From the NCBI GenBank assembly GCA_951406725.2, contig OX597817.1:98890001-98954000 (forward strand): 64,000 nt of DNA. Direction: 5' to 3'. Source of the stretch: Octopus vulgaris (Eukaryota). The notes under the pieces are model-generated. The model searched no databases and was not told where the DNA came from. It saw nothing but the letters and a program-made list of their open reading frames with translations. Position 1 is the stretch's first letter. Every line of letters starts with the position of its first letter. The translations under genes and the position numbers were made by a program. Below are positions 467-63,865 of this stretch, in pieces.

Positions 467-713
467 TGTGGGATGACGTCAGCAGCTGGGGAGCTGACCA
501 GAGGGGCAGCAGTGACGCGCGCGCAGGTAGGGCAGGATTCTGCCTTTTCAAGCGAGTAAGACGAGGTCAGTACGTTGTTAAGGTTGGGAGAAGCAGCTGC
601 TATCTCTAGCGTTCGGGTCGGGCTGTGTTGAAGGATTCATTACCGTTGAAGGGTCTCCATCTGAGCGAAGAGAAGGTAGGTGCCTTTATTTCGAATCTCT
701 CGCATACACCACA
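467..713 (+). repeat. 3' LTR (247 bp)
   Basis: Termini are TGTGG...CCACA (5-bp inverted), preceded by a PPT-like AGGGTGGCG. Clearly homologous to 61776-62069 (shared TGTGGGATGACGTCAGCAGCTGG start and GAAGAGAAGGTAGGTGCCT near the end). Confidence 0.9.
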
Positions 714-4059: not shown

Positions 4060-4672
4060 GGATCTTTACCTTTTGATCTACAGATTTAAAAAATAACTTT
4101 TTGTAACTAAACACTTTCAAACTTCGGACACTGGTAGAACACTGTATCATATAAAACATCTTTTACTCTTAGCATTTTTGAGAAAAACGTATATTTACGA
4201 GGTTATTTCATGTAAAAGTTCTCATATTTTGGTAATTTCAACCAATCAATGACGTGTATTCAGCTGAATGAAATTACTGCCATTGTTTGTCAGCAACAAC
4301 TATCGGCAGTGTATTTTTCGTTTGTCACTGTTATTTATGACATCGTTCGTGCGTTTGTACTGGTTTTAAGGTTAGGGTTTTAGGGTTAAGGTTGTCATAA
4401 ATAACAGTGACGAATGAAATATACACCACCGGAAGTTCTTGTTAACAAACAACAGCAGTAATTTTATTCAGCTGAATTCACATCATTGATTGGTTGAAAT
4501 TACCGAAATATGAGAACTTTAACATGAAATAACTTTGTAAATATAAGTTTTTCTCAAAAATGCTAAGAGTAAAAGATGTTTTATATGACACATTCTACCA
4601 GTGTCCGAAGTTTGAAAGTGCTTAGTTACAAAAAATTATTTTCAAAATCTGTAGGTCAAAAGGTAAAGATCC
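4060..4672. mobile_element. Palindromic MITE (Merlin-like: GG termini, 8-bp TSD) with a telomere-like core
   Basis: GGATCTTTACC...GGTAAAGATCC with ~285-bp inverted arms. TSD GGTTTTTG at 4052-4059 and 4673-4680. Core TTAAGG TTAGGG TTTTAGGG TTAAGG. It splits the Gypsy protease region. Confidence 0.9.
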
Positions 4673-7600
4673 GGTTTTTGTTATAAAAGATCACTCATAC
4701 CCCATTCTGGGTGTGGACTTCTTAAACCACTTTCACTTGTTAGTAGATATCAGGTGACAGAGACTCGCAGACAATTCTACATCTTTGTTTACACCTGCTC
4801 AGTTTACTACTAATGCTGTTTTCAGCCCATCATTTTTTGTCGCCACTGCTGGTCACCAGTTCCACTCCCTTTTGGCTTCTTTCCCAGAGCTGGTAGATCC
4901 AACTTTCAAATCAGTCAAAGTAACACACTCAACTTGCCTTTATATTACTATTTCTGGACAACCCGTCTTTTCACATCCACAGTGACTTGCCCCTGACTGG
5001 CTCAAAAAGGCTCAATCTGAGTTTGAGCACATGCTTCAACTCGACCTTATTTGCTTCTCCATCAGCCCTTGGGCATCTCCTCTACATTTGGCATGGAAAG
5101 GGGATTCAGATTTTCGCCCAGTGGGGGATTACAGAGGTTTGAATGCGATAACTGTTCCCATCGTTATCCAATGAGGAATCTCCTGGAATTTTCTTTAAAC
5201 TTGCATGGTTGTACTGTTTTTTCCAAGGTTGACCTCATCCAGGCTTATCATCAAATTCTGATGAACCCTGATGACATTCCCAAAACTGCTGTTACCACTC
5301 CCTTCGGAAGTTTTGAGTTCCTGTTTATGAGCTTCGGTTTGCAGAATGTAACAAGCGCATTCCAAAGGTTTATTTACAAAGTTGTCTGTGGATTTGACTT
5401 TGTGTTTGCTTATATTGATGATTTGCTCATAGCTAGCAACATGCATAAAACTCACCTCCAGCAGTTATCTCAACTTTTTCAGTGTCTTCGCTCCTACAAT
5501 GTGCAAATCAACCCCAATAAGTGTGTTTGCGGACAGACCTCTCAGAAATTCCTAGGTAATTATATTGATTCTAATGGTATCCAACCTCTCTCCTCCAAAG
5601 TCAATGCAATTCAATGCATCTCACCTCCCACTTCTTTGCGCCAACTGCGTCACTTCTTGGGAATTGTCAACTTCTACAGGAGATTCATACCTAAATGTGC
5701 AGACAAGTTACTTCCCTTGACTCAACTATTGAAATGAATACAAAAAAAAAATTCTATCACTTTATCTGCCGAGGCATTATCTTCTTTCGAGTCAATCAAG
5801 AAGGAAATAGTTTCTGTTCCTTTGCTTGCACATCCGGTTCCTGATGCTTGTCTCTCTTTAACAGTTGATGCATCAGATTCTGTACTTGGTGCCATTTTAT
5901 AACATACCATCAATAATCAGGCTCAACCTTTGGCATTTTTTGCTCATCAATTAAAGCCAGCTGAATGTTGTTACAGTACGTTTGATCGTAAACTCTCAGT
6001 GACCTACCTGTCGGTTCGTTGTTTTCAACATCAACTTGAAGGCCAAGCTTTCGTGATTTATACTGATCACAAGCCTCTTACATTTGCTCTGTCATCTAAA
6101 TTGGACAAACACTTGCCTCGTGCTTTTTGTCAACTGGACTACATTTCCCAGTTTTTGAGTGACATTCAGCATATACCTGCAACAGAGAATGTACCTCCTG
6201 ATGCACTCTCTCATCTCCCTGTTTGTTCTCTTTCATCTCCTGCTGCAATCGTTTTAACTGCAATTGAGCAGGATCAGCCAGCTCAGGACACATTGGATCT
6301 CACTTCTACCAAGTCGTCCTGTTGAAAGTTTGCCTGTCTTCCACTTTCGTTTGTAACATAGCTACTGGTTCTCTCAGGCTGTTTGTACCTGAGAACCTTG
6401 TATTCACTGTCACATCCTGGCATCCTTGCCTCAGTGAAGCTTATTACAGTTCAATTTTCTGGCCTAATATGCGCTGGATGATTACCGCTAGGGCATGCTC
6501 TTGTGTGAAATGCCAGTGTTCTAAAATCCACAAGCACATTCGCGCTCCTCTTGGACAGTTTTCTCCACCAGAGACTCGCTTTCACCATGTTCACATTTAT
6601 CTGGTTGGACCATAGCCTGTCAGTCACGGTTTCTCTTACATATTGACATGCATCGATCATTTCTCTTGTTGGCCTGAAGCTGTTCCAATAGTGGACATTT
6701 CCGCTGAGTCAGTTGCTCAAGCTTTCGTTACTAACTGGATTGCTTGCTTTGGTGTCCTTATTTCATGAATTATCATGAATCCTAGGCATTCATCACATTT
6801 GTATGACCAGCTACCACCCAGCTTCCAATGGGATGGTTGAATATTTTCACAGGCAACTGAGGGCCAATCTACACGCCACTCCTGATCTGCAGTCTTGGAC
6901 AGAATTCCTGCCTATCTTTCTTCTTGGTTGTTACCCTGCTGTTAAGACAGACTTGGGTTTCTCCTCAGCTGAACTCCTTTACGGTACCACCCTGACACCT
7001 CCTGGTACAATGTTAGCTCCAGACAATTCATCGCATCCTGATCCAACGTCGTATGTCACCAGACATCGCTTGTATTTTTTGAGTCTTCCACCCATGCATC
7101 CACATGACCAATCTATTCCCTCTCACGTCCCACCAGACATTGACATGTTTTGTTCGGGATGATTCTGTCAGAGGACCGCTCATTTCTCCCTATAAAGGAC
7201 CATTTCATGTGCTATCGTGCACACCCAAAACTTTTAGTCTCGACATCAGTGGTCGGGCAGAGACAATGTCAGTAAACAGACTTAAAAAGGCACATTCTGA
7301 GGTTTCCACACCTTTCAACAACACCCCAGCCACGCCCACTTTTGATCTTTTACAACCACCTGTACATCCACCTGCACGTGCACCTTTGATCACACCATCA
7401 CCTACACCTCCATCTTCATCACCACAACCTAACACAAACAAGCCTTATATCATCTGGACAGGCAGTACTGTGCATTGGCCCAAAAAACTTACCAGAACTA
7501 TTGATATCTGACATCTTTTGTGCTTTCTGTGACAGGCAATTGTTTTCTTGTGTTGTTGAACATTTCCAATGCTTTGCCATCGAACATTTTGTCAAAATTT

Positions 7601-12080: not shown

Positions 12081-12227
12081 TACATATATATATATATATA
12101 TATATTAACATATACCAGTGACTTTCACATTACATCATAGAGATTAACCAGTAGAATATCTTAGATTATATAATCCCTAATGAGGATATAACTTCCTCGA
12201 ATTGGCTATATAAATATATATATATAT

Positions 12228-12775
12228 ATAAATGAAAGAATGGAGTCGAACGACGATTTAACAAAATTCCTTTATTCTCGACATATGTTTCGAAGACTGC
12301 ATATTCCTAATTCCGAAGGAATAAGGGGTGCAATATGCCGCCTTCTCATCAGGAAAGACAAGGAACTTATGTCAGCATCATGACAAACAAAAACTTTTAG
12401 ATGACTACCCACACGGAGTCCATAGTGATAATGATTATCACTATGGACTCCGTGTGGGCAGTCATCTAAAAGTTTTTGTTTGTCATGATGCTGACATAAG
12501 TTCCTTGTCTTTCCTGATGAGAAGGCACCCCTTATTCCTTCGGAATTAGGAATATGCAGTCTTCGAAACATATGTCGAGAATAAAGGAATTTTGTTAAAT
12601 CATCGTTTGACTCCATTGTTTCATTTATTTAGAGTAAAAAGAACACACAAATTTCCACACGAAAGCATGTGATCTCTGCCCTTGGCATGTAGCTTCAACC
12701 GTGTTTTCTGACGTGAATTTACTACCCGGGTATCGGTTAACCGATTTATCCATACTAGGATAATTCATTCAACTA

Positions 12776-29020: not shown

Positions 29021-31480
29021 TAATAATAATGATAATAATAATGAAATTATTGTATACAGTGCTCAGGTGCACCACAACTTGTCAGAAAGTGCATATAAAG
29101 TACATGCAGTAATGTAGAAATGTCTGGAAAGTGAACATGCTTGTGTGTGTATGGAGGGGAGAAAATCAAGTGTAGTGTTGGCGAATCTCAGGAAGCATGG
29201 AAGTTTTGAAGGATGCAGTGCTCCGACAACTAACAACCGATGCCGGCAGTTTGTTCCACGCTTCAGCAACTCTCAGCGTGAAAAAATGTTTCCTGAAGTC
29301 ATGAGAGCTGTGCTGTTTTCTTACTTTGTAAATATGTCCACGGGTGTTAGATGGGTGGAGTTTGAAGAGGTGCTCAGAGTTATTGTTTGTGCGATGGTTG
29401 ATAATTTTATGGGTGTCTGCCAAGTCAGCTGCCAGACGTCGGAGTTTCAATGTGTCCATGCCCAGGGAAGTAAGGCGTTCAGGATATGGCAAATGCCTGA
29501 TGGAGGGTATTCTTTTGGTTGCACGTCGCTAAACAGCTTCCAGACGATTGATGTCCTGGGCAAGATAGGGGTTCCAGACCGGTGATGCAAATTCCAGGTG
29601 AGGTCTTACCATAGCTATATAAAGTCGCAGATAGATAGCTGGAGAGCGGCTCACAAAGGATTTGGTGAGTGATGCCAAGACACCCTCAGCCTTCTTGGCA
29701 ATTTTAGTAATGTGTTTTGTCCAACGCAAATCACTGTCGACAATAACACCCAGGTCACGTTCACTTGAAGACTTTTTGAGACTAGTGTTGTGGAGGGAGT
29801 AGGTGGACGCTGGGTTTCTCCTCCCAAAATGCATGGTGGTACCTTTGTCCACAGCCAGCTTGAGTTGCCAGTCCATGATCCACTGCTGCATTGTGTCCAG
29901 GTCTGCTTGCAATAGAGATCCATAGTGTACAGGATTTGACCTCTTTATTTCGAGGTACAGCTTGATGTCATCTGCATATTTCAGCACTGTGGCATTCTTT
30001 AAGTTGGCATCTATGTCATTAACATATGCAACAAATAAAAGGGAGCCAAGAACAGATCCCTGCGGCACACCAGATGTCATCTCATAGGGCGAAGAGTGCT
30101 GTCCTAGAACTGTGACAACCTCTTTTCGGCCGAAAATAAAGGACTTTAACCAGTTATAGAGTTCGTCTCTTACACCCAACGCAGAAAGCTTCACCATAAG
30201 TCTTTTGTGTGACACAGAGTTAAAAGCCTTAGCAAAGTCCAGGTAAACAACATCCACCCAGGATCCGCGATCAGTGATTTGGGTAACGTCCTCAAGAAAC
30301 TCGATGAGTTGATTACAGCAGCTGGAGTTAGGAATAAATCCGAATTGTGATGGCTGGATGAGGCTGTGAGACTTCCAGAAGTTCCAGAGGGTTTCTCTGA
30401 TACAGGATTCCATCAGTTTGGCGATGCAGCTAGTAAGACTGATGGGGCGATAGTTGACAGGCGATGTGCGGTCGCCTTTTTTGAACAGAGGCATGACACT
30501 GGCAGTTTTCCACTGTTCTGGAGTAACACCATTGTCAAGACAGAATTGGAAGAATAGAGAAAGTTGGCTTAGAAGAAAGTACCCACCGCGTTTGAGAAGT
30601 AAGTATGTAACACCATTGAGACCAGGAGAGGCATAATTGCGTTTATTCTTTAGGTGGCGTTGCAGCATTGCTGGTGTAAATTGCATAGAAGATATAGAGT
30701 CCGATGTCAGTGGTGATGATGATGGAACATTTTGGTCTTCGACAGTAAAGATGCCGGCATAGCATCCAGCAATGATTTCTGCACATTCTTCGGGATTGCC
30801 AGTAATCTGTCCTGTGTGGGGATTGCGAAGGGGACCAACAGGAGAGTGGGGTCTCTGCTTTGAGTGCACATACTTCCAGAACCCTTTGCTGTCAGGGTTA
30901 GCTGCAATGCGTTGTTCAAATTCAAGCACTGCCTTTTTTGTTACCTGCTTGAGGTGGTTGGCTGACCTATTGCGCTTTTTCCTGTTGCTCTCTGATTTGT
31001 GCAATTTGTATTCCCGTTCAGCATTACGGCATTCTTTCCTGGCAAGTCGGACTGCTGCAGTCTCCCAAATTGCACTATTGGGTGGTTTTTTGTGCTTGCA
31101 TGGTACTGATGCTGCACATGCTGCCCATATTGAATTCAGAATGTTCTGGAGTATAGTGTCCACATCTCCAGAGGCATAAAATTCACGCCAGTTTGGGCGT
31201 TGCAGCTCCGTACAATAAGAGCTCCAGTTTGCTTTATTCCAGTCAAAGCGGGCAATCTGAAGATGGTTGTGTTTTTTGTTACAACCAATCAGAGACAAGT
31301 CGGCCATGATCATGGAATGATCAGAGTCACCCAAAGGTTCTTCAGTAGCGACACTAATGATTGTTTCAGGAGAAGCAGTAAGTAGCAGATCCAAAGTGTT
31401 GTTACCCCTTGTGGGGGAGGTAACAACTTGGGACTAATTCGAATTCAGCACCAGTTCAAGGAAATCGTCTGCATTTTTAT
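29021..31480 (-). mobile_element. CR1-group LINE, 5'-truncated, with (ATT)n tail
   Basis: Endonuclease end (LDLLL, LGDSDH), RT and C-terminal RKHFFTLRVAEAWNKLP. TAA-repeat tail at 29021-29042. Confidence 0.92.
29529..31394 (-). CDS. CR1-group ORF2 fragment (APE C-terminus + reverse transcriptase), 621 aa open, frameshifted into 29166-29492
   Basis: NYRPISLTS, QFGF, VYLDFAKAFNSV, SGVPQGSVLG, KYADDIK, ERDLGVIVD, RPHLEFASPVWNP. Confidence 0.85.
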   Translation of the reverse strand: MDLLLTASPETIISVATEEPLGDSDHSMIMADLSLIGCNKKHNHLQIARFDWNKANWSSYCTELQRPNWREFYASGDVDTILQNILNSIWAACAASVPCKHKKPPNSAIWETAAVRLARKECRNAEREYKLHKSESNRKKRNRSANHLKQVTKKAVLEFEQRIAANPDSKGFWKYVHSKQRPHSPVGPLRNPHTGQITGNPEECAEIIAGCYAGIFTVEDQNVPSSSPLTSDSISSMQFTPAMLQRHLKNKRNYASPGLNGVTYLLLKRGGYFLLSQLSLFFQFCLDNGVTPEQWKTASVMPLFKKGDRTSPVNYRPISLTSCIAKLMESCIRETLWNFWKSHSLIQPSQFGFIPNSSCCNQLIEFLEDVTQITDRGSWVDVVYLDFAKAFNSVSHKRLMVKLSALGVRDELYNWLKSFIFGRKEVVTVLGQHSSPYEMTSGVPQGSVLGSLLFVAYVNDIDANLKNATVLKYADDIKLYLEIKRSNPVHYGSLLQADLDTMQQWIMDWQLKLAVDKGTTMHFGRRNPASTYSLHNTSLKKSSSERDLGVIVDSDLRWTKHITKIAKKAEGVLASLTKSFVSRSPAIYLRLYIAMVRPHLEFASPVWNPYLAQDINRLEAV

Positions 31481-47906: not shown

Positions 47907-49670
47907 CTAGCAGTATAGCCCAGCGCTGCTCGGGTTTGTTTTTTAGTTGCGCTTAAAATGGCAGACTTTGATGTCATGTTAACAAAGTTTTGACATAGTT
48001 TCAATCTTTGAATAAAAGTATAGTGTGGCGATGCTTGAGTTTGTTCTGAATGTGCTGCAAATGTGTAATGCCAACTTAAATTGTTGATATTGTTGGTTAA
48101 TATTCCTTCTATTAACATTATGGAGAAAAAAATTACCTGTAGATTTAAAGCAAAATGAAGCTCAAGTTTCGAACTGCACTGAAAATCTATTAAGAAGTTA
48201 ACACTGCAACAGTGTTCATTAAGAAAAAGTACTGGAAAATCCAAAACGTTAGTAAGAACAGTTTGTGGTTACAAAAAAAGAAATGTTATTTTGAAGCCAA
48301 ACAGGTGGGCAACATGAATCGCGTTTGTACCTATAAAATGAATAAAATCGACTATTTTACATCACGTATAACTAAAAAAATCTGTAAAATCAAAACATTC
48401 CTATTCAAGGTTTGACTTGAACATCGTAGATAGTAACAGCATGTAGATAGCACTTTTCTGGTTGAAATACACCGAAAAATGGCGACACAGCAGTAAAAAA
48501 ATCATAAAATATAGTGATTTTCTTAGAAAAAAGCACCTTTTTGATGTAAATAATTGGATCTTTTCGCTTTGACTGGCAGATTTTTAAAATAATTTCTTTG
48601 TAACTAAACACTTTTAAACTTCATATACTGGTAGAATGTGTTACATAAAACATCTTTTTCTCTTGGCTTTCTTGAGAAAATTCTGTAGTTTGTAAGCTAT
48701 TTGTTGTTTAATTTCTTGCATTTCGGCAATTTCAACCAATCAATGACGTCTATTGAGGTGAATATAATTTCTTTGGTTTTTTGTCAACAACATTTTCTGG
48801 CGGTGTCATATCAATTTGTCACTGTTATTTATGAGAAAAAAGATACCCTGTGGCCATAAACTGAGGGGTCACTCGTAAACAGAGCTGGATAACAAAACCG
48901 TTCCCTCTTTAGTGTTCACCCATAATTATGACCCTAGTATCAATCTATTGCATTTCAATCTGTTTTAGGGTTAGGGTTAGGGTTAGGGGTTATGATTAGG
49001 GGTGGGGGAGGGGTATCTTTTTTTCTTCAGAAATGTAAGTAAACCCAATCTGTTTCTTAAACGAATATATAATATGTAATGTGTGTATCTGTGCAACAGA
49101 GAGGGAAATTAAAACTGCATATGTTGTAAACTTACAATATGTGTTTATTAATAAAAGTTTAATAACAATAATCTTTTATTGATACGAACGTAACTGATAT
49201 GAAATATGTCATAAATAACAGTAAAAAATTGATATGACACCGCCAGAAAATGTTGTTGACAAAAAACCGGAGAAATTGTATTCACCTCAATAGATATCAT
49301 TGATTGGTTGAAATTGCCGAAATGCAAGAAATTAAACAACAAATAGCTCACAAACTACAGAATTTTCTCAAGCAAGCCAAGAGAAAAAGATGTTTTATGT
49401 AACACATTCGACCAGTCTACGAAGTTTAAAAGTGTTTAATTACAAAGAAATTATTTTAAAAATCTGCCGGTCAAAAGGAAAAGATCCAAATAATTTTTGG
49501 TCTTAAAATGGTCCGATTTGAATTTTTTCTTCTACAGAATGAAGAGCAAGCCTTCTATCATACTCTCAATTTTGGTCAACTTGCGCTGCAGGGTCTCGGA
49601 GGAGATAGTGTTAGTTGAAGGCTACCAAATCTACCATACACACACAGACAACTTGAGCTTTATATATATA
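47907..49670 (-). mobile_element. Non-autonomous Helitron (copy A) with a nested MITE
   Basis: 3' end is CTAG with subterminal hairpin (CCCAGCG...GCTCGGG), in (TA)n. Partly homologous to copy B. Confidence 0.7.
48556..49487. mobile_element. Palindromic MITE, same family as 4060-4672, with an 8-bp TSD and (TTAGGG)n core
   Basis: GGATCTTTT...AAAAGATCC; TSD AAATAATT at 48548-48555 and 49488-49495; (TTAGGG)4 at 48965-48988. Confidence 0.92.
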
Positions 49671-61632: not shown

Positions 61633-61775
61633 GGCACTTTGAGCAAGTGTCTTCTACTGTAGGTCAGGGCTGACCAATATTTTCAACAATGATGTTACAA
61701 CCATATCTCATTGTTCAAGTGCTTCAATTCTGTGTATGAATATTTATTCAACTACTGACATTTATCAGTGGTTTC

Positions 61776-62069
61776 TGTGGGATGACGTCAGCAGCTGGAC
61801 GTCAGCAGCCGGGTGCGTTGACCGGAAGCTGGGGCAACAGGAAGGGGTTAGCCGTCAGGCGTGCGCAGGGAGCGGGGAATTGCGCCCTTTCCAACATGAG
61901 TCATGCAGGTGACAAGACATGTGAGGATGTCGCTAAAGGTTTGGGCTAGCAGCTGCTATCGTTAGTGTTTGGGTCGGGGCTGTGTGGAAGGACTAGTCAC
62001 CATTGGAGGGTTTCCGTCACTAAGAAGAGAAGGTAGGTGCCTCTATATTCAAATCGCGCACACACTACA
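61776..62069 (+). repeat. 5' LTR (294 bp)
   Basis: TGTGG...CTACA termini; homologous to 467-713. Confidence 0.9.
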
Positions 62070-62081
62070 AGCTATTTCGGC
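62070..62081 (+). promoter_or_regulatory. Non-canonical primer-binding site complementary to the 5' end of tRNA-Phe(GAA)
   Basis: AGCTATTTCGGC lies directly after the LTR. Its reverse complement GCCGAAATAGCT is nt 1-12 of the conserved metazoan cytosolic tRNA-Phe (from recall). Confidence 0.75.
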
Positions 62082-62113
62082 TGTTCTTAAACATTTACAT
62101 TTTTTTCAACACG

Positions 62114-63865
62114 ATGTCTGCAAAAATTAGGATCGCCAGTGACGTCGTCAGACCTTTTAATGGCGAAGGCGATGTAGTGGCCTGGATTCGCAAAATCAGG
62201 CTGGTGGCAAGGCTGCAGGCAATTGTGGCCGAACGCGTGATAGATGGAGTTGATGTGGTGATGGGGATGGATGCCATCAACTGCCTCGGTGGCGTCAGTG
62301 TTGTGGGAAATGAGGTCATGTTCGGAAGCATGGGGGTGTCGTGCACTGCGAGTCAGGATCGCCAGAGAGAGCAGAGCCCCGCGAGGGACTGCGCCACTTA
62401 CACCATCGAGGACAAAGACTTTCAGGCGGCGTTCGATGGTCAGCGGTGGACGATAGAGAGGCGATGGAAGGATGAGCCCCCTACACTGGAGAACAGGGTG
62501 AGCTGTTACCAGCATACCCTGAAAGGCCACGCCAGGGTCGAGTTTGAAGACGAGGTGGAGAGGTGGATCGAGGAAGGGGTCCTTGTCCCTTGGAAGGAGG
62601 AGGTAGCGGGCAGAGTGCTACCCCTGATGGGGGTGGTGCAGCCTACGAAGGGAAAAGTCAGACCGGTGCTGGACTTCAGGGAGCTAAACCAGCACATATC
62701 GTGTCACACGGTAGGTGAGGCGACAAACGTTTGTGGCGAGGCATTACGTAAGTGGAGACAGTCGACTGAGGCAGTGACGATTGTCGACTTGAGATCGGCA
62801 TACTTGCAGCTCCATGTGAGCGACAAACTGTGGCGATATCAGCTGGTGCGGTATAAGGGCCGGACGTACTGTCTAACCAGGCTGGGTTTCGGGCTGAATT
62901 CCGCTCCGAAGATCATGGCGGCAGTGCTTAGGTCCGTCCTAGGGAAAGACGGCAAGATTAGAAAGGCCACCAGCTCCTACATTGACGACATTTTGGTGGA
63001 CGAAACTGTAGTGCCAGCCGACGAGGTAGTTAGACATCTGGAGAAGTTCGGACTGATTGCTAAGCCACCGGACTCGATTGAAGGGGGAGCCGCGCTGGGG
63101 CTGAAGCTGCGAAGAGATGGATCAGGTGAATTGGTGTTCCGGAGAGGAAATGAAATCCCAGAGCTGAGTTCCAGCGTCAGCAGGAGAGAGCTGTTCTCGG
63201 TGTGTGGGAAGTTGGTCGGTCACTATCCGATCGCTGGATGGCTGCGCACGGCGTGTAGTTACACCAAGAGACGAGCAGAAGGAGAGAGGTGGGGCGACAA
63301 GGTGGGAGAAGGGACGGTGGCGATGATGCAGGAAATCCTAGAGAGGACAAGAGCGGAAGACCCGGTCAGGGGGAACTGGTACGTGCCCAAGACAAAATGC
63401 TGGACCGTCTGGTGTGATGCTAGCAGTATAGCGATAGGGGTGGTGTTGGCAATCGAAGGCACTGCGGTGGAGGACGCGGCCTGGCTTCGGAAAGCAGATG
63501 ATTTCAACCACATCAATGTTGCCGAATTAGACGCGCTGCTGAAAGGGGTGAACTTGGCCTTGAAATGGGGACTGCGCACGATTGAAATCCGGACGGATTC
63601 GGCCACTGTGCTTGGCTGGGTAGGATCGGTGATCACCGGTGACAGGAGAGTGCGGACGAAAGGTGCTGCGGAGATGTTAGTGAAGCGCCGTCTAGGAGTT
63701 CTAGGTGAATTGATCGCCGAGTTTGGACTGAAGCTGAACGTGGTTTTCGAGCCTTCGGAGAAAAACAGGGCGGACGTACTAACCAGGGTGAAAAGAGCGT
63801 GGTTGGAAGAACCGGAGGCCCGGAAAGGGATAGCTGCGCGTGTCGGTTGGATGACTCTGAACTGA
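62114..63865 (+). CDS. LTR-retrotransposon polyprotein: gag N-terminus fused to protease C-terminus, RT and RNase H (583 aa)
   Basis: PFNGEGDVVAW (gag start); VVMGMD (protease end); VRPVLDFRELN, VDLRSAYLQ, LGFGLNSAP, SYIDDILV (RT); WCDASS, HINVAELDA, IRTDS, NRADVLTR (RNase H). Confidence 0.88.
   Translation: MSAKIRIASDVVRPFNGEGDVVAWIRKIRLVARLQAIVAERVIDGVDVVMGMDAINCLGGVSVVGNEVMFGSMGVSCTASQDRQREQSPARDCATYTIEDKDFQAAFDGQRWTIERRWKDEPPTLENRVSCYQHTLKGHARVEFEDEVERWIEEGVLVPWKEEVAGRVLPLMGVVQPTKGKVRPVLDFRELNQHISCHTVGEATNVCGEALRKWRQSTEAVTIVDLRSAYLQLHVSDKLWRYQLVRYKGRTYCLTRLGFGLNSAPKIMAAVLRSVLGKDGKIRKATSSYIDDILVDETVVPADEVVRHLEKFGLIAKPPDSIEGGAALGLKLRRDGSGELVFRRGNEIPELSSSVSRRELFSVCGKLVGHYPIAGWLRTACSYTKRRAEGERWGDKVGEGTVAMMQEILERTRAEDPVRGNWYVPKTKCWTVWCDASSIAIGVVLAIEGTAVEDAAWLRKADDFNHINVAELDALLKGVNLALKWGLRTIEIRTDSATVLGWVGSVITGDRRVRTKGAAEMLVKRRLGVLGELIAEFGLKLNVVFEPSEKNRADVLTRVKRAWLEEPEARKGIAARVGWMTLN

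Follow-up and report, generated by a model that had tools for sequence, protein, structure and literature searches.

Immediately after the 5' LTR of a retrotransposon in the Octopus vulgaris genome lies a 12-nt sequence, AGCTATTTCGGC, that is the exact complement of nucleotides (nt) 1-12 of the host tRNA-Phe(GAA), and comparison with its relatives indicates that the feature is real and lineage-wide. It is probable that this 12-mer is the primer-binding site of the element and that a 12-nt fragment from the 5' end of a tRNA primes minus-strand synthesis. The same comparisons give good support to regarding the site as a new form of cut-tRNA priming. Positions below are those of the window, by which we mean the whole 64,000-nt stretch of DNA that was analysed.

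467..713, + strand: 3' LTR belonging to another, more diverged element of this lineage; the 5' LTR of that element is upstream of the window (L045) and has an identical 12-mer directly after it
61771..61775, + strand: 5' target-site duplication (TSD) GTTTC, the same 5 bp standing past the element's 3' LTR, ~800-1100 bases beyond the window end
61776..62069, + strand: 5' LTR of 294 bp, TG...CA (TGTG...TACA), 95% identical to the element's own 3' LTR
62070..62081, + strand: putative 12-nt primer-binding site AGCTATTTCGGC, exact complement of host tRNA-Phe(GAA) nt 1-12, with zero spacer after the LTR
62082..62082, + strand: +13 base, the first past the 12-mer, hypervariable and homoplastic in close copies; candidate untemplated base from plus-strand run-off
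62114..63865, + strand: gag start in frame with the protease end, then RT and RNase H; integrase out of frame near the ORF end
62978..62989, + strand: RT catalytic motif YIDD
63413..63781, + strand: RNase H domain with four acidic catalytic-type residues (motifs CDASS, VAELD, TDSAT, RADVL)

The element and its site in the octopus genome

The initial annotation had fixed the end of the 5' LTR by homology with the LTR at 467-713. We agree with this placement, for which firmer proof comes from the 3' LTR of the same element, a little beyond the window (G000:C4:98954822-98955115; 95% identical to the 5' LTR), and from the GTTTC/GTTTC TSD. As annotated, the 12-mer is flush with the LTR and no TGG follows; it is also the sole match in the window at no more than one mismatch (shuffle mean 0.11). 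The window copy lacks ~800 nt of gag and protease at ~62209-62219 relative to fuller copies, which measure ~4.2 kb and carry a gag with two zinc knuckles overlapping pol (PR-RT-RH-IN). All five full copies checked have termini TGTG..TACA, and the TSD is a perfect 5 bp in four of them and matches at 4 of 5 bases in the fifth.

Other features of these copies can be recorded here. In the host family, pyrimidines break up the polypurine tract before the 3' LTR (447-466 in the window), AAGATCAGGGTGGCG, whereas in L230 and similar relatives the tract closes with a run of G. A GGGAAAC slippery heptamer lies in the gag/pol overlap of five of six host copies (L040:1384, L042:1061, L045:4675, and on the minus strand in L043 and L044) and of 11 of 22 metagenome loci, some XXXYYYZ heptamer being found nearby in 19 of the 22; by their sequence, these heptamers point to a -1 frameshift conserved in the lineage.

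The proposed 12/12 match to the 5' end of tRNA-Phe was borne out in the host itself, where tRNA-Phe(GAA) genes have the reverse complement of the site, unchanged, as their first 12 nt: a 25-nt pattern of the tRNA-Phe 5' end gave 77 matches in the genome (2.8 Gb) versus 0 for the control, and ARAGORN started tRNA-Phe(GAA) at the predicted base in 8 of 8 loci checked. The possibility, raised at the outset, that host tRNA-Phe lacks this 5' sequence thus falls away. Within a partial set of 122 host tRNA genes, which spans 15 anticodon labels without Gly, Leu, Pro, Val, His, Tyr, Asp, Gln, Trp and initiator Met, the complement of the site was found solely at the tRNA-Phe 5' end. Matches to this 5' end also form a tandem array of ~40 copies with a 200-bp period (G000:C18:30148722-30157146) and a second dense cluster at C6:130.88-131.01 Mb.

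Conservation within the host genome is extensive. The 12-mer preceded by the CA of the LTR, CAAGCTATTTCGGC, has 287 genome matches versus 14 for a reversed control. In a sample of 31 of these loci (the 30 that head the list, and L045), 30 have gag or pol of this lineage behind them. Families with 45-90% Gag identity have the 12-mer in common amid unrelated flanks; where Gag identity is ~45-50%, the LTRs are unalignable and similarity ends directly after the 12-mer. Against circularity, copies were also anchored by Gag, and 90 of 150 scored matches were examined. The best 30 comprised 26 exact sites, three with one mismatch and one with two. A further 60, more distant and picked by hand down the list while skipping a number already among the CA+12-mer loci, comprised 29 exact sites, 17 with one mismatch, six with two, three with three, and five copies without the site. 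Taken together, the 90 Gag-anchored copies include 55 exact sites and 82 with zero to two mismatches. This is the pattern that the initial annotation had suggested looking for, a 12-mer kept while its flanks diverge, with an edge that is sharp after nt 12; the opposite outcome that it had envisaged, a standard TGG site in other copies, did not occur in any of the 85 Gag-anchored copies whose site could be recognised. The site variants of non-host relatives occur at background in the host genome (3 vs 3, 1 vs 4 and 1 vs 0).

Relatives beyond the host and the choice of tRNA

A search with Pol returned 688 proteins, the named ones being hypothetical proteins of porcelain crab, argonaut and mantis shrimp; clustering of the RT region at 50% identity gave 295 clusters at E <= 1e-30 and 1047 at 1e-10. 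From this wider lineage, 76 metagenome and 2 MAG loci were fetched by Pol alignment, blind to the site. A gag start was present in 42 of the 78 loci; two of these lacked upstream DNA, and the site was found in all the other 40, after an LTR-like ..CA end (ACA in most) and in nearly all cases within ~30 nt of gag. The edge of the LTR is set by a second LTR in a single metagenome locus, L230, where the site is flush with the LTR end, and is inferred elsewhere. Many of the metagenome contigs (L198, L200, L201, L202, L210, L222, L224, L236 and L245) are circularly permuted with terminal overlaps, as one-LTR circles or multi-copy assembly would be, and the lineage contigs inside two bacterial MAGs (L272 and L273) are probably contamination.

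Seven more sites brought the total to 47, of which 44 are distinct. These sites were chosen by an AGCT anchor, by similarity or by eye, and the invariance of tRNA positions 8-11 across all 44 is partly built in by that anchor. Positions 1-4 lie outside the anchor and are conserved in 41, 41, 43 and 38 of the 44 sites respectively; positions 5-6 are variable, and the columns past the site are mixed.

Twelve of the 44 distinct sites equal the complement of host tRNA-Phe. The L241 site complements nt 1-12 of tRNA-Lys(CTT) without mismatch, and the sites of L205 and L238 are exact to one host Lys gene (L448) with one mismatch to the main Lys types. In a tree of RT-RH (39 rows, four having been dropped for short matches), L238, L240 and L241 form one clade (99/95) and L205 falls apart from it; Lys-type sites therefore arose at least twice. 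In L248 all 12 nt of the site are complementary to nt 1-12 of a tRNA-Met(CAT) that has an intron (44 genome matches vs 0), and the first base of the site has changed in step with tRNA position 12. The host tRNA-Met(CAT) genes that start GCCTCGG (L457, L461 and L462) carry their intron after the anticodon loop.

For the remaining 28 distinct sites there is no exact match among host tRNAs. Named by their ends, the common variants are TCGCGGC (10 sites), TCACGGC (9) and TCCCGGC (2). Against host Phe they show changes at positions 5-6, and we predict that they match the tRNA-Phe of their own hosts. A search of viral contigs for eukaryotic tRNA-Phe variants with such starts gave only prokaryote-type tRNA-Thr, Met or Val; no tRNA genes were found in the 78 metagenome and MAG loci; three Phe/His rows in the accessible part of a supplementary table of tRNA 3' ends (PMC13524379) equal none of the variants; and the literature gave nothing usable on eukaryotic tRNA-Phe that would match them. 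In the viral contigs the CA+12-mer occurred at 120 loci, which we take as chance level, and a Pol search found no relative there. The sites of L216, L260 and L273 stand 2-3 mismatches from any tRNA start in the partial host set. Those of L260, L273 and L226 begin AGCTA, without an exact tRNA start in that set, and may represent further tRNA types or decayed sites.

The base directly after the site, +13, shows all four letters among close copies and behaves differently from its surroundings when scored on trees. On a tree of 45 copies it underwent 7 changes versus a column mean of 1.42, with 5 of 489 columns as high; on a tree of 31 copies it underwent 9 versus a mean of 2.31, with 2 of 486 columns as high. 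Both trees were built from LTR and gag parts with +13 left out and the other columns in, which introduces some bias, and +13 is singled out by tree scoring only, other columns being as variable in raw counts. Contigs from four public runs showed C>A at +13, while in the 40 rows listed, out of 177, the site itself was unchanged. Reverse transcriptases add untemplated bases at template ends, and we infer that the variability of +13 may be the trace of such addition when plus-strand DNA runs off the 5' end of the primer.

Priming mechanism and alternative readings

Minus-strand DNA begins at the LTR edge from a paired 3'-OH. Pairing beyond tRNA nt 12 would need ACTG at the LTR end to accommodate nt 13-16, and this is present in 0 of 44 sites. 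With nt 12 against the LTR edge and no pairing available to nt 13-16, the primer has to stop at tRNA nt 12. The core inference of the initial annotation, priming by a 5' tRNA piece that ends at nt 12, gains weight from family-wide conservation, the sharp edge, the switches to Lys and Met and the lack of a self-complement, all of them properties of the sequences compared.

A four-step model can be envisaged. Its starting point is what has been described above: throughout the lineage, a site of exactly 12 nt that complements the 5' end of a tRNA follows the LTR without a gap. The last 7 nt of the site equal the 3' acceptor strand of tRNA-Phe itself (nt 66-72), and the site could for that reason replace this strand. 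It would then displace the acceptor strand and open the 5' side of the D stem to yield a 12-bp RNA duplex. Cofolding favours this site-tRNA duplex by ~9 kcal/mol, in a model that omits tRNA modifications and did not return the cloverleaf. The tRNA would next be cut between nt 12 and 13, leaving a 3'-OH. As nuclease we favour the RT-RNase H of the element, to which we give about half of the weight and which by analogy with Tf1 would cut the RNA duplex at a fixed distance from the RNA 5' end; the remainder goes to a host nuclease or to the trimming of a longer 5' tRF. Finally, plus-strand strong-stop DNA would copy the primer to G1 and run off, such that the 12-mer is renewed from host tRNA in each cycle, and the run-off would often add one untemplated base at +13. 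The acidic motifs of RNase H are complete in 92 of 104 long Pol relatives.

The confidence that we place in a 12-nt 5' fragment as primer thus divides about evenly between the RNase H of the element and a host route, and these readings differ in the cut step only. In the latter case the same primer would be wholly host-made, with the element's RNase H taking no part, either from a pre-existing 5' tRF (cut in the D loop) that is trimmed to the duplex edge, or through a host enzyme such as tRNase Z that cuts the 12-bp hybrid. This is a serious contender that falls only somewhat short of probable: 5' tRFs are common, 12 bp is the acceptor-plus-T-stem length measured by tRNA-processing enzymes, and Copia and Ty5 use a tRNA cut in the anticodon region. 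However, the 12-nt register is the same for Phe, Lys and Met despite their differing position 12, which fits a ruler that the element itself brings along; its RNase H motifs are retained as well, although replication would need them anyway. It is also conceivable that the site serves to bind a whole, uncut tRNA, with a role in packaging, dimerisation or translation control, and that the real primer is another, for example a freed CCA end as in bipartite Ty3-type sites. Binding of nt 1-12 would free the tRNA 3' strand, and no cut product has been seen; nevertheless, minus-strand DNA must start at the LTR edge, exactly where the site lies flush and where copies examined have no TGG, the hypervariable +13 fits plus-strand run-off at tRNA G1, and the L248 site tracks tRNA position 12. 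We regard docking as unlikely.

Self-priming of the Tf1 type, from the 5' end of the element's own transcript either directly or after splicing within the LTR, would render the tRNA match incidental, and we judge it very unlikely. Zero spacer, no TGG and a short site are indeed what Tf1/sushi elements have, and the upstream duplex beats nearly all shuffles in 3 of 48 elements (16 from the host genome and 32 metagenome loci with >=150 nt upstream). Yet 3 of 48 is about the chance expectation, and the site stays constant while LTRs become unalignable and switches between tRNA types. Contiguous self-priming was rejected on these 48 elements, across which the best upstream complement is no better than shuffles (3 at p <= 0.03); in the window copy the self-complement has p = 0.80, with -9.5 vs -18.7 kcal/mol for the tRNA duplex. 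A spliced self-primer was likewise rejected, no GT..AG-split complement being found in the window LTR (one LTR). That the likeness is due to chance, or to an integrase or nucleocapsid binding motif that resembles tRNA, is barely credible: the invariance of the motif in relatives does come partly from search anchoring, but three tRNA types are matched 12/12 over their nt 1-12, always in one register, and elements in the host specifically use the host Phe sequence.

Returning to cleavage by the element itself, its fullest form is a tentative proposal that we consider possible and would not call probable: that the RT-RNase H of a previously unrecognised, superfamily-level LTR lineage bearing DUF7047 cuts any annealed host tRNA exactly 12 nt from its 5' end, as a fourth way of priming. 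If true, such cutting would be the trans-acting counterpart of Tf1 self-priming, the CCA end would not be needed, and priming from the 5' 12 nt would escape silencing by 3' tRNA fragments.

Placement of the lineage and significance

The element belongs to a deeply diverged DUF7047-bearing Gag-PR-RT-RH-IN lineage. DUF7047 was found in 28 of 28 members searched against Pfam and PF17917 (RT_RNaseH) in 0 of 28; DUF7047 maps between RT and RNase H and is likely the thumb. The RT lies far from five host Gypsy RTs (branch 5.06) on a tree in which one row was mis-extracted, which holds no Troyka, DIRS, Copia or retroviral references, and for which 15 of 20 Gypsy loci and both BEL loci yielded no RT. 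Among 19 PDB matches, the best RTs were MLV and foamy at E ~1e-5 and none was named Ty3, and Foldseek on a model (pLDDT 80.6) returned the RTs of foamy virus, CaMV, HIV and MLV, all 13-17% identical and none standing out as the nearest. In the ESM Atlas, its own kin are unnamed DUF7047 clusters only. No matching peptide of the mollusc and annelid Gypsy clades MolGy, PolGy, Tor2 and Cigr-1 was found in the portions of the published supplements searched. The lineage RT is shorter after YxDD than Gypsy RTs and is without the K..KC.F motif (window 62978-63110).

The comparison with Ty3/Gypsy (Metaviridae) is two-sided. LTRs, the order of gag and PR-RT-RH-IN, TG..CA ends, a 5-bp TSD and a gag/pol overlap are all alike. 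According to the part of the ICTV profile available to us, the Metaviridae site is 18 nt and complementary to a tRNA 3' end (PMC7879559), whereas that of the window lineage matches tRNA nt 1-12; known members such as Tf1 deviate too, so this difference is compatible with membership. The GPY/F integrase motif, which is common and not universal in Ty3/Gypsy, was found in 0 of 104 long Pol relatives (last 150 aa). The lineage may merit a superfamily of its own.

The initial annotation had mentioned 5'-tRNA-type sites as proposed for Troyka, a link that did not survive comparison; the main text of the Troyka paper is without PBS, primer or tRNA. Troyka/Kuafuorterviruses resemble the window lineage in being deeply diverged LTR elements from aquatic animals whose domains run PR-RT-RH-IN and which have neither a tether domain nor GPY/F. 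As far as the accessible parts of their descriptions go, their ends are CG..CG (PMC12440569) and their RT motif is IADD/VADD/LADD (PMC11673190). Here, in contrast, the five full copies all have TG..CA termini against 5'-CG..CG-3', the TSD is 5 bp against 3 bp, and 104 relatives have YIDD (76), YVDD (15), FIDD (7) or other motifs (6), with xADD in none. The Gag knuckles, CX2CX3HX4C and CX2CX4HX4C (Pfam zf-CCHC), differ from CX2CX8-10HX4C, and gag and pol are separate in an element of ~4.2 kb.

Two known systems are closer in their priming. Tf1, Tj1 and sushi elements likewise pair the extreme 5' end of an RNA, which must be cut for a 3'-OH, with a short site adjacent to the LTR; the Tf1/sushi primer is 11 nt long. 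In Tf1, by the sections of the source seen, RNase H cuts the RNA duplex to form the primer (PMC4600332). Unlike these elements, the window lineage would use a host tRNA in trans and not its own transcript, it has no self-complement, and no chromodomain is among its Pfam matches. The half-tRNA elements of Copia (Drosophila copia, Ty5, Osser, Bryco, Bianca and fungal Copia/Helenus) are alike in using the 5' piece of a cut tRNA as primer and in lacking TGG, on the parts of PMC6317226 and PMC10886601 that were available. Their cut lies in the anticodon stem or loop and their site pairs with the middle of the tRNA, whereas the window lineage matches nt 1-12 with a predicted primer of 12 nt; furthermore, their order (Hemivirus type) is PR-IN-RT-RH, and here integrase follows RNase H.

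A plant-wide survey, as far as its accessible text goes, recognises three types of LTR primer, namely the whole tRNA, a half tRNA cut in the anticodon stem, and a self primer (PMC6317226); a later paper citing it, again in the text available, restricts 3'-truncated tRNA primers to some Copia lineages, with a cut in the anticodon loop (PMC10886601). A lineage-wide primer made of the 12-nt 5' tip of a tRNA, with switches among Phe, Lys and Met, would be a further type, bridging half-tRNA and Tf1 priming. No description of a priming site for tRNA nt 1-12 was found in the literature; Repbase Reports, GyDB, subscription journals or the Troyka figshare data could hold one. The site motif and four variants, sought as literal text, occur in 10 papers of the indexed text, and none of the eight listed is, by title and opening of the abstract, on retrotransposons. 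The searchable parts of PMC6238403 and PMC8556966 contain no 'primer' text for invertebrate clades, and those of PMC6934838, PMC12859917 and PMC13524379 nothing on a 12-nt site.

Pipelines that scan tRNA 3' ends only, as the available part of PMC13524379 describes, would score this lineage as being without a PBS. The site offers a simple in vitro test of host tRNA processing by RT-RNase H, and it is tempting to speculate that 5', and not 3', tRNA fragments may play a role in the control of such retrotransposons.

The window holds further repeats beside the element. Long inverted-repeat pairs, 89-99% complementary and MITE- or foldback-like, lie at 4143-4592, 12225-12631 and 48548-49495, and two other reading frames encode RT: one at 29529-31433 on the minus strand (RVT_1, 115 bits), which is LINE-like with a YADD motif, and one at 5027-5737 on the plus strand (RVT_1, 84 bits).
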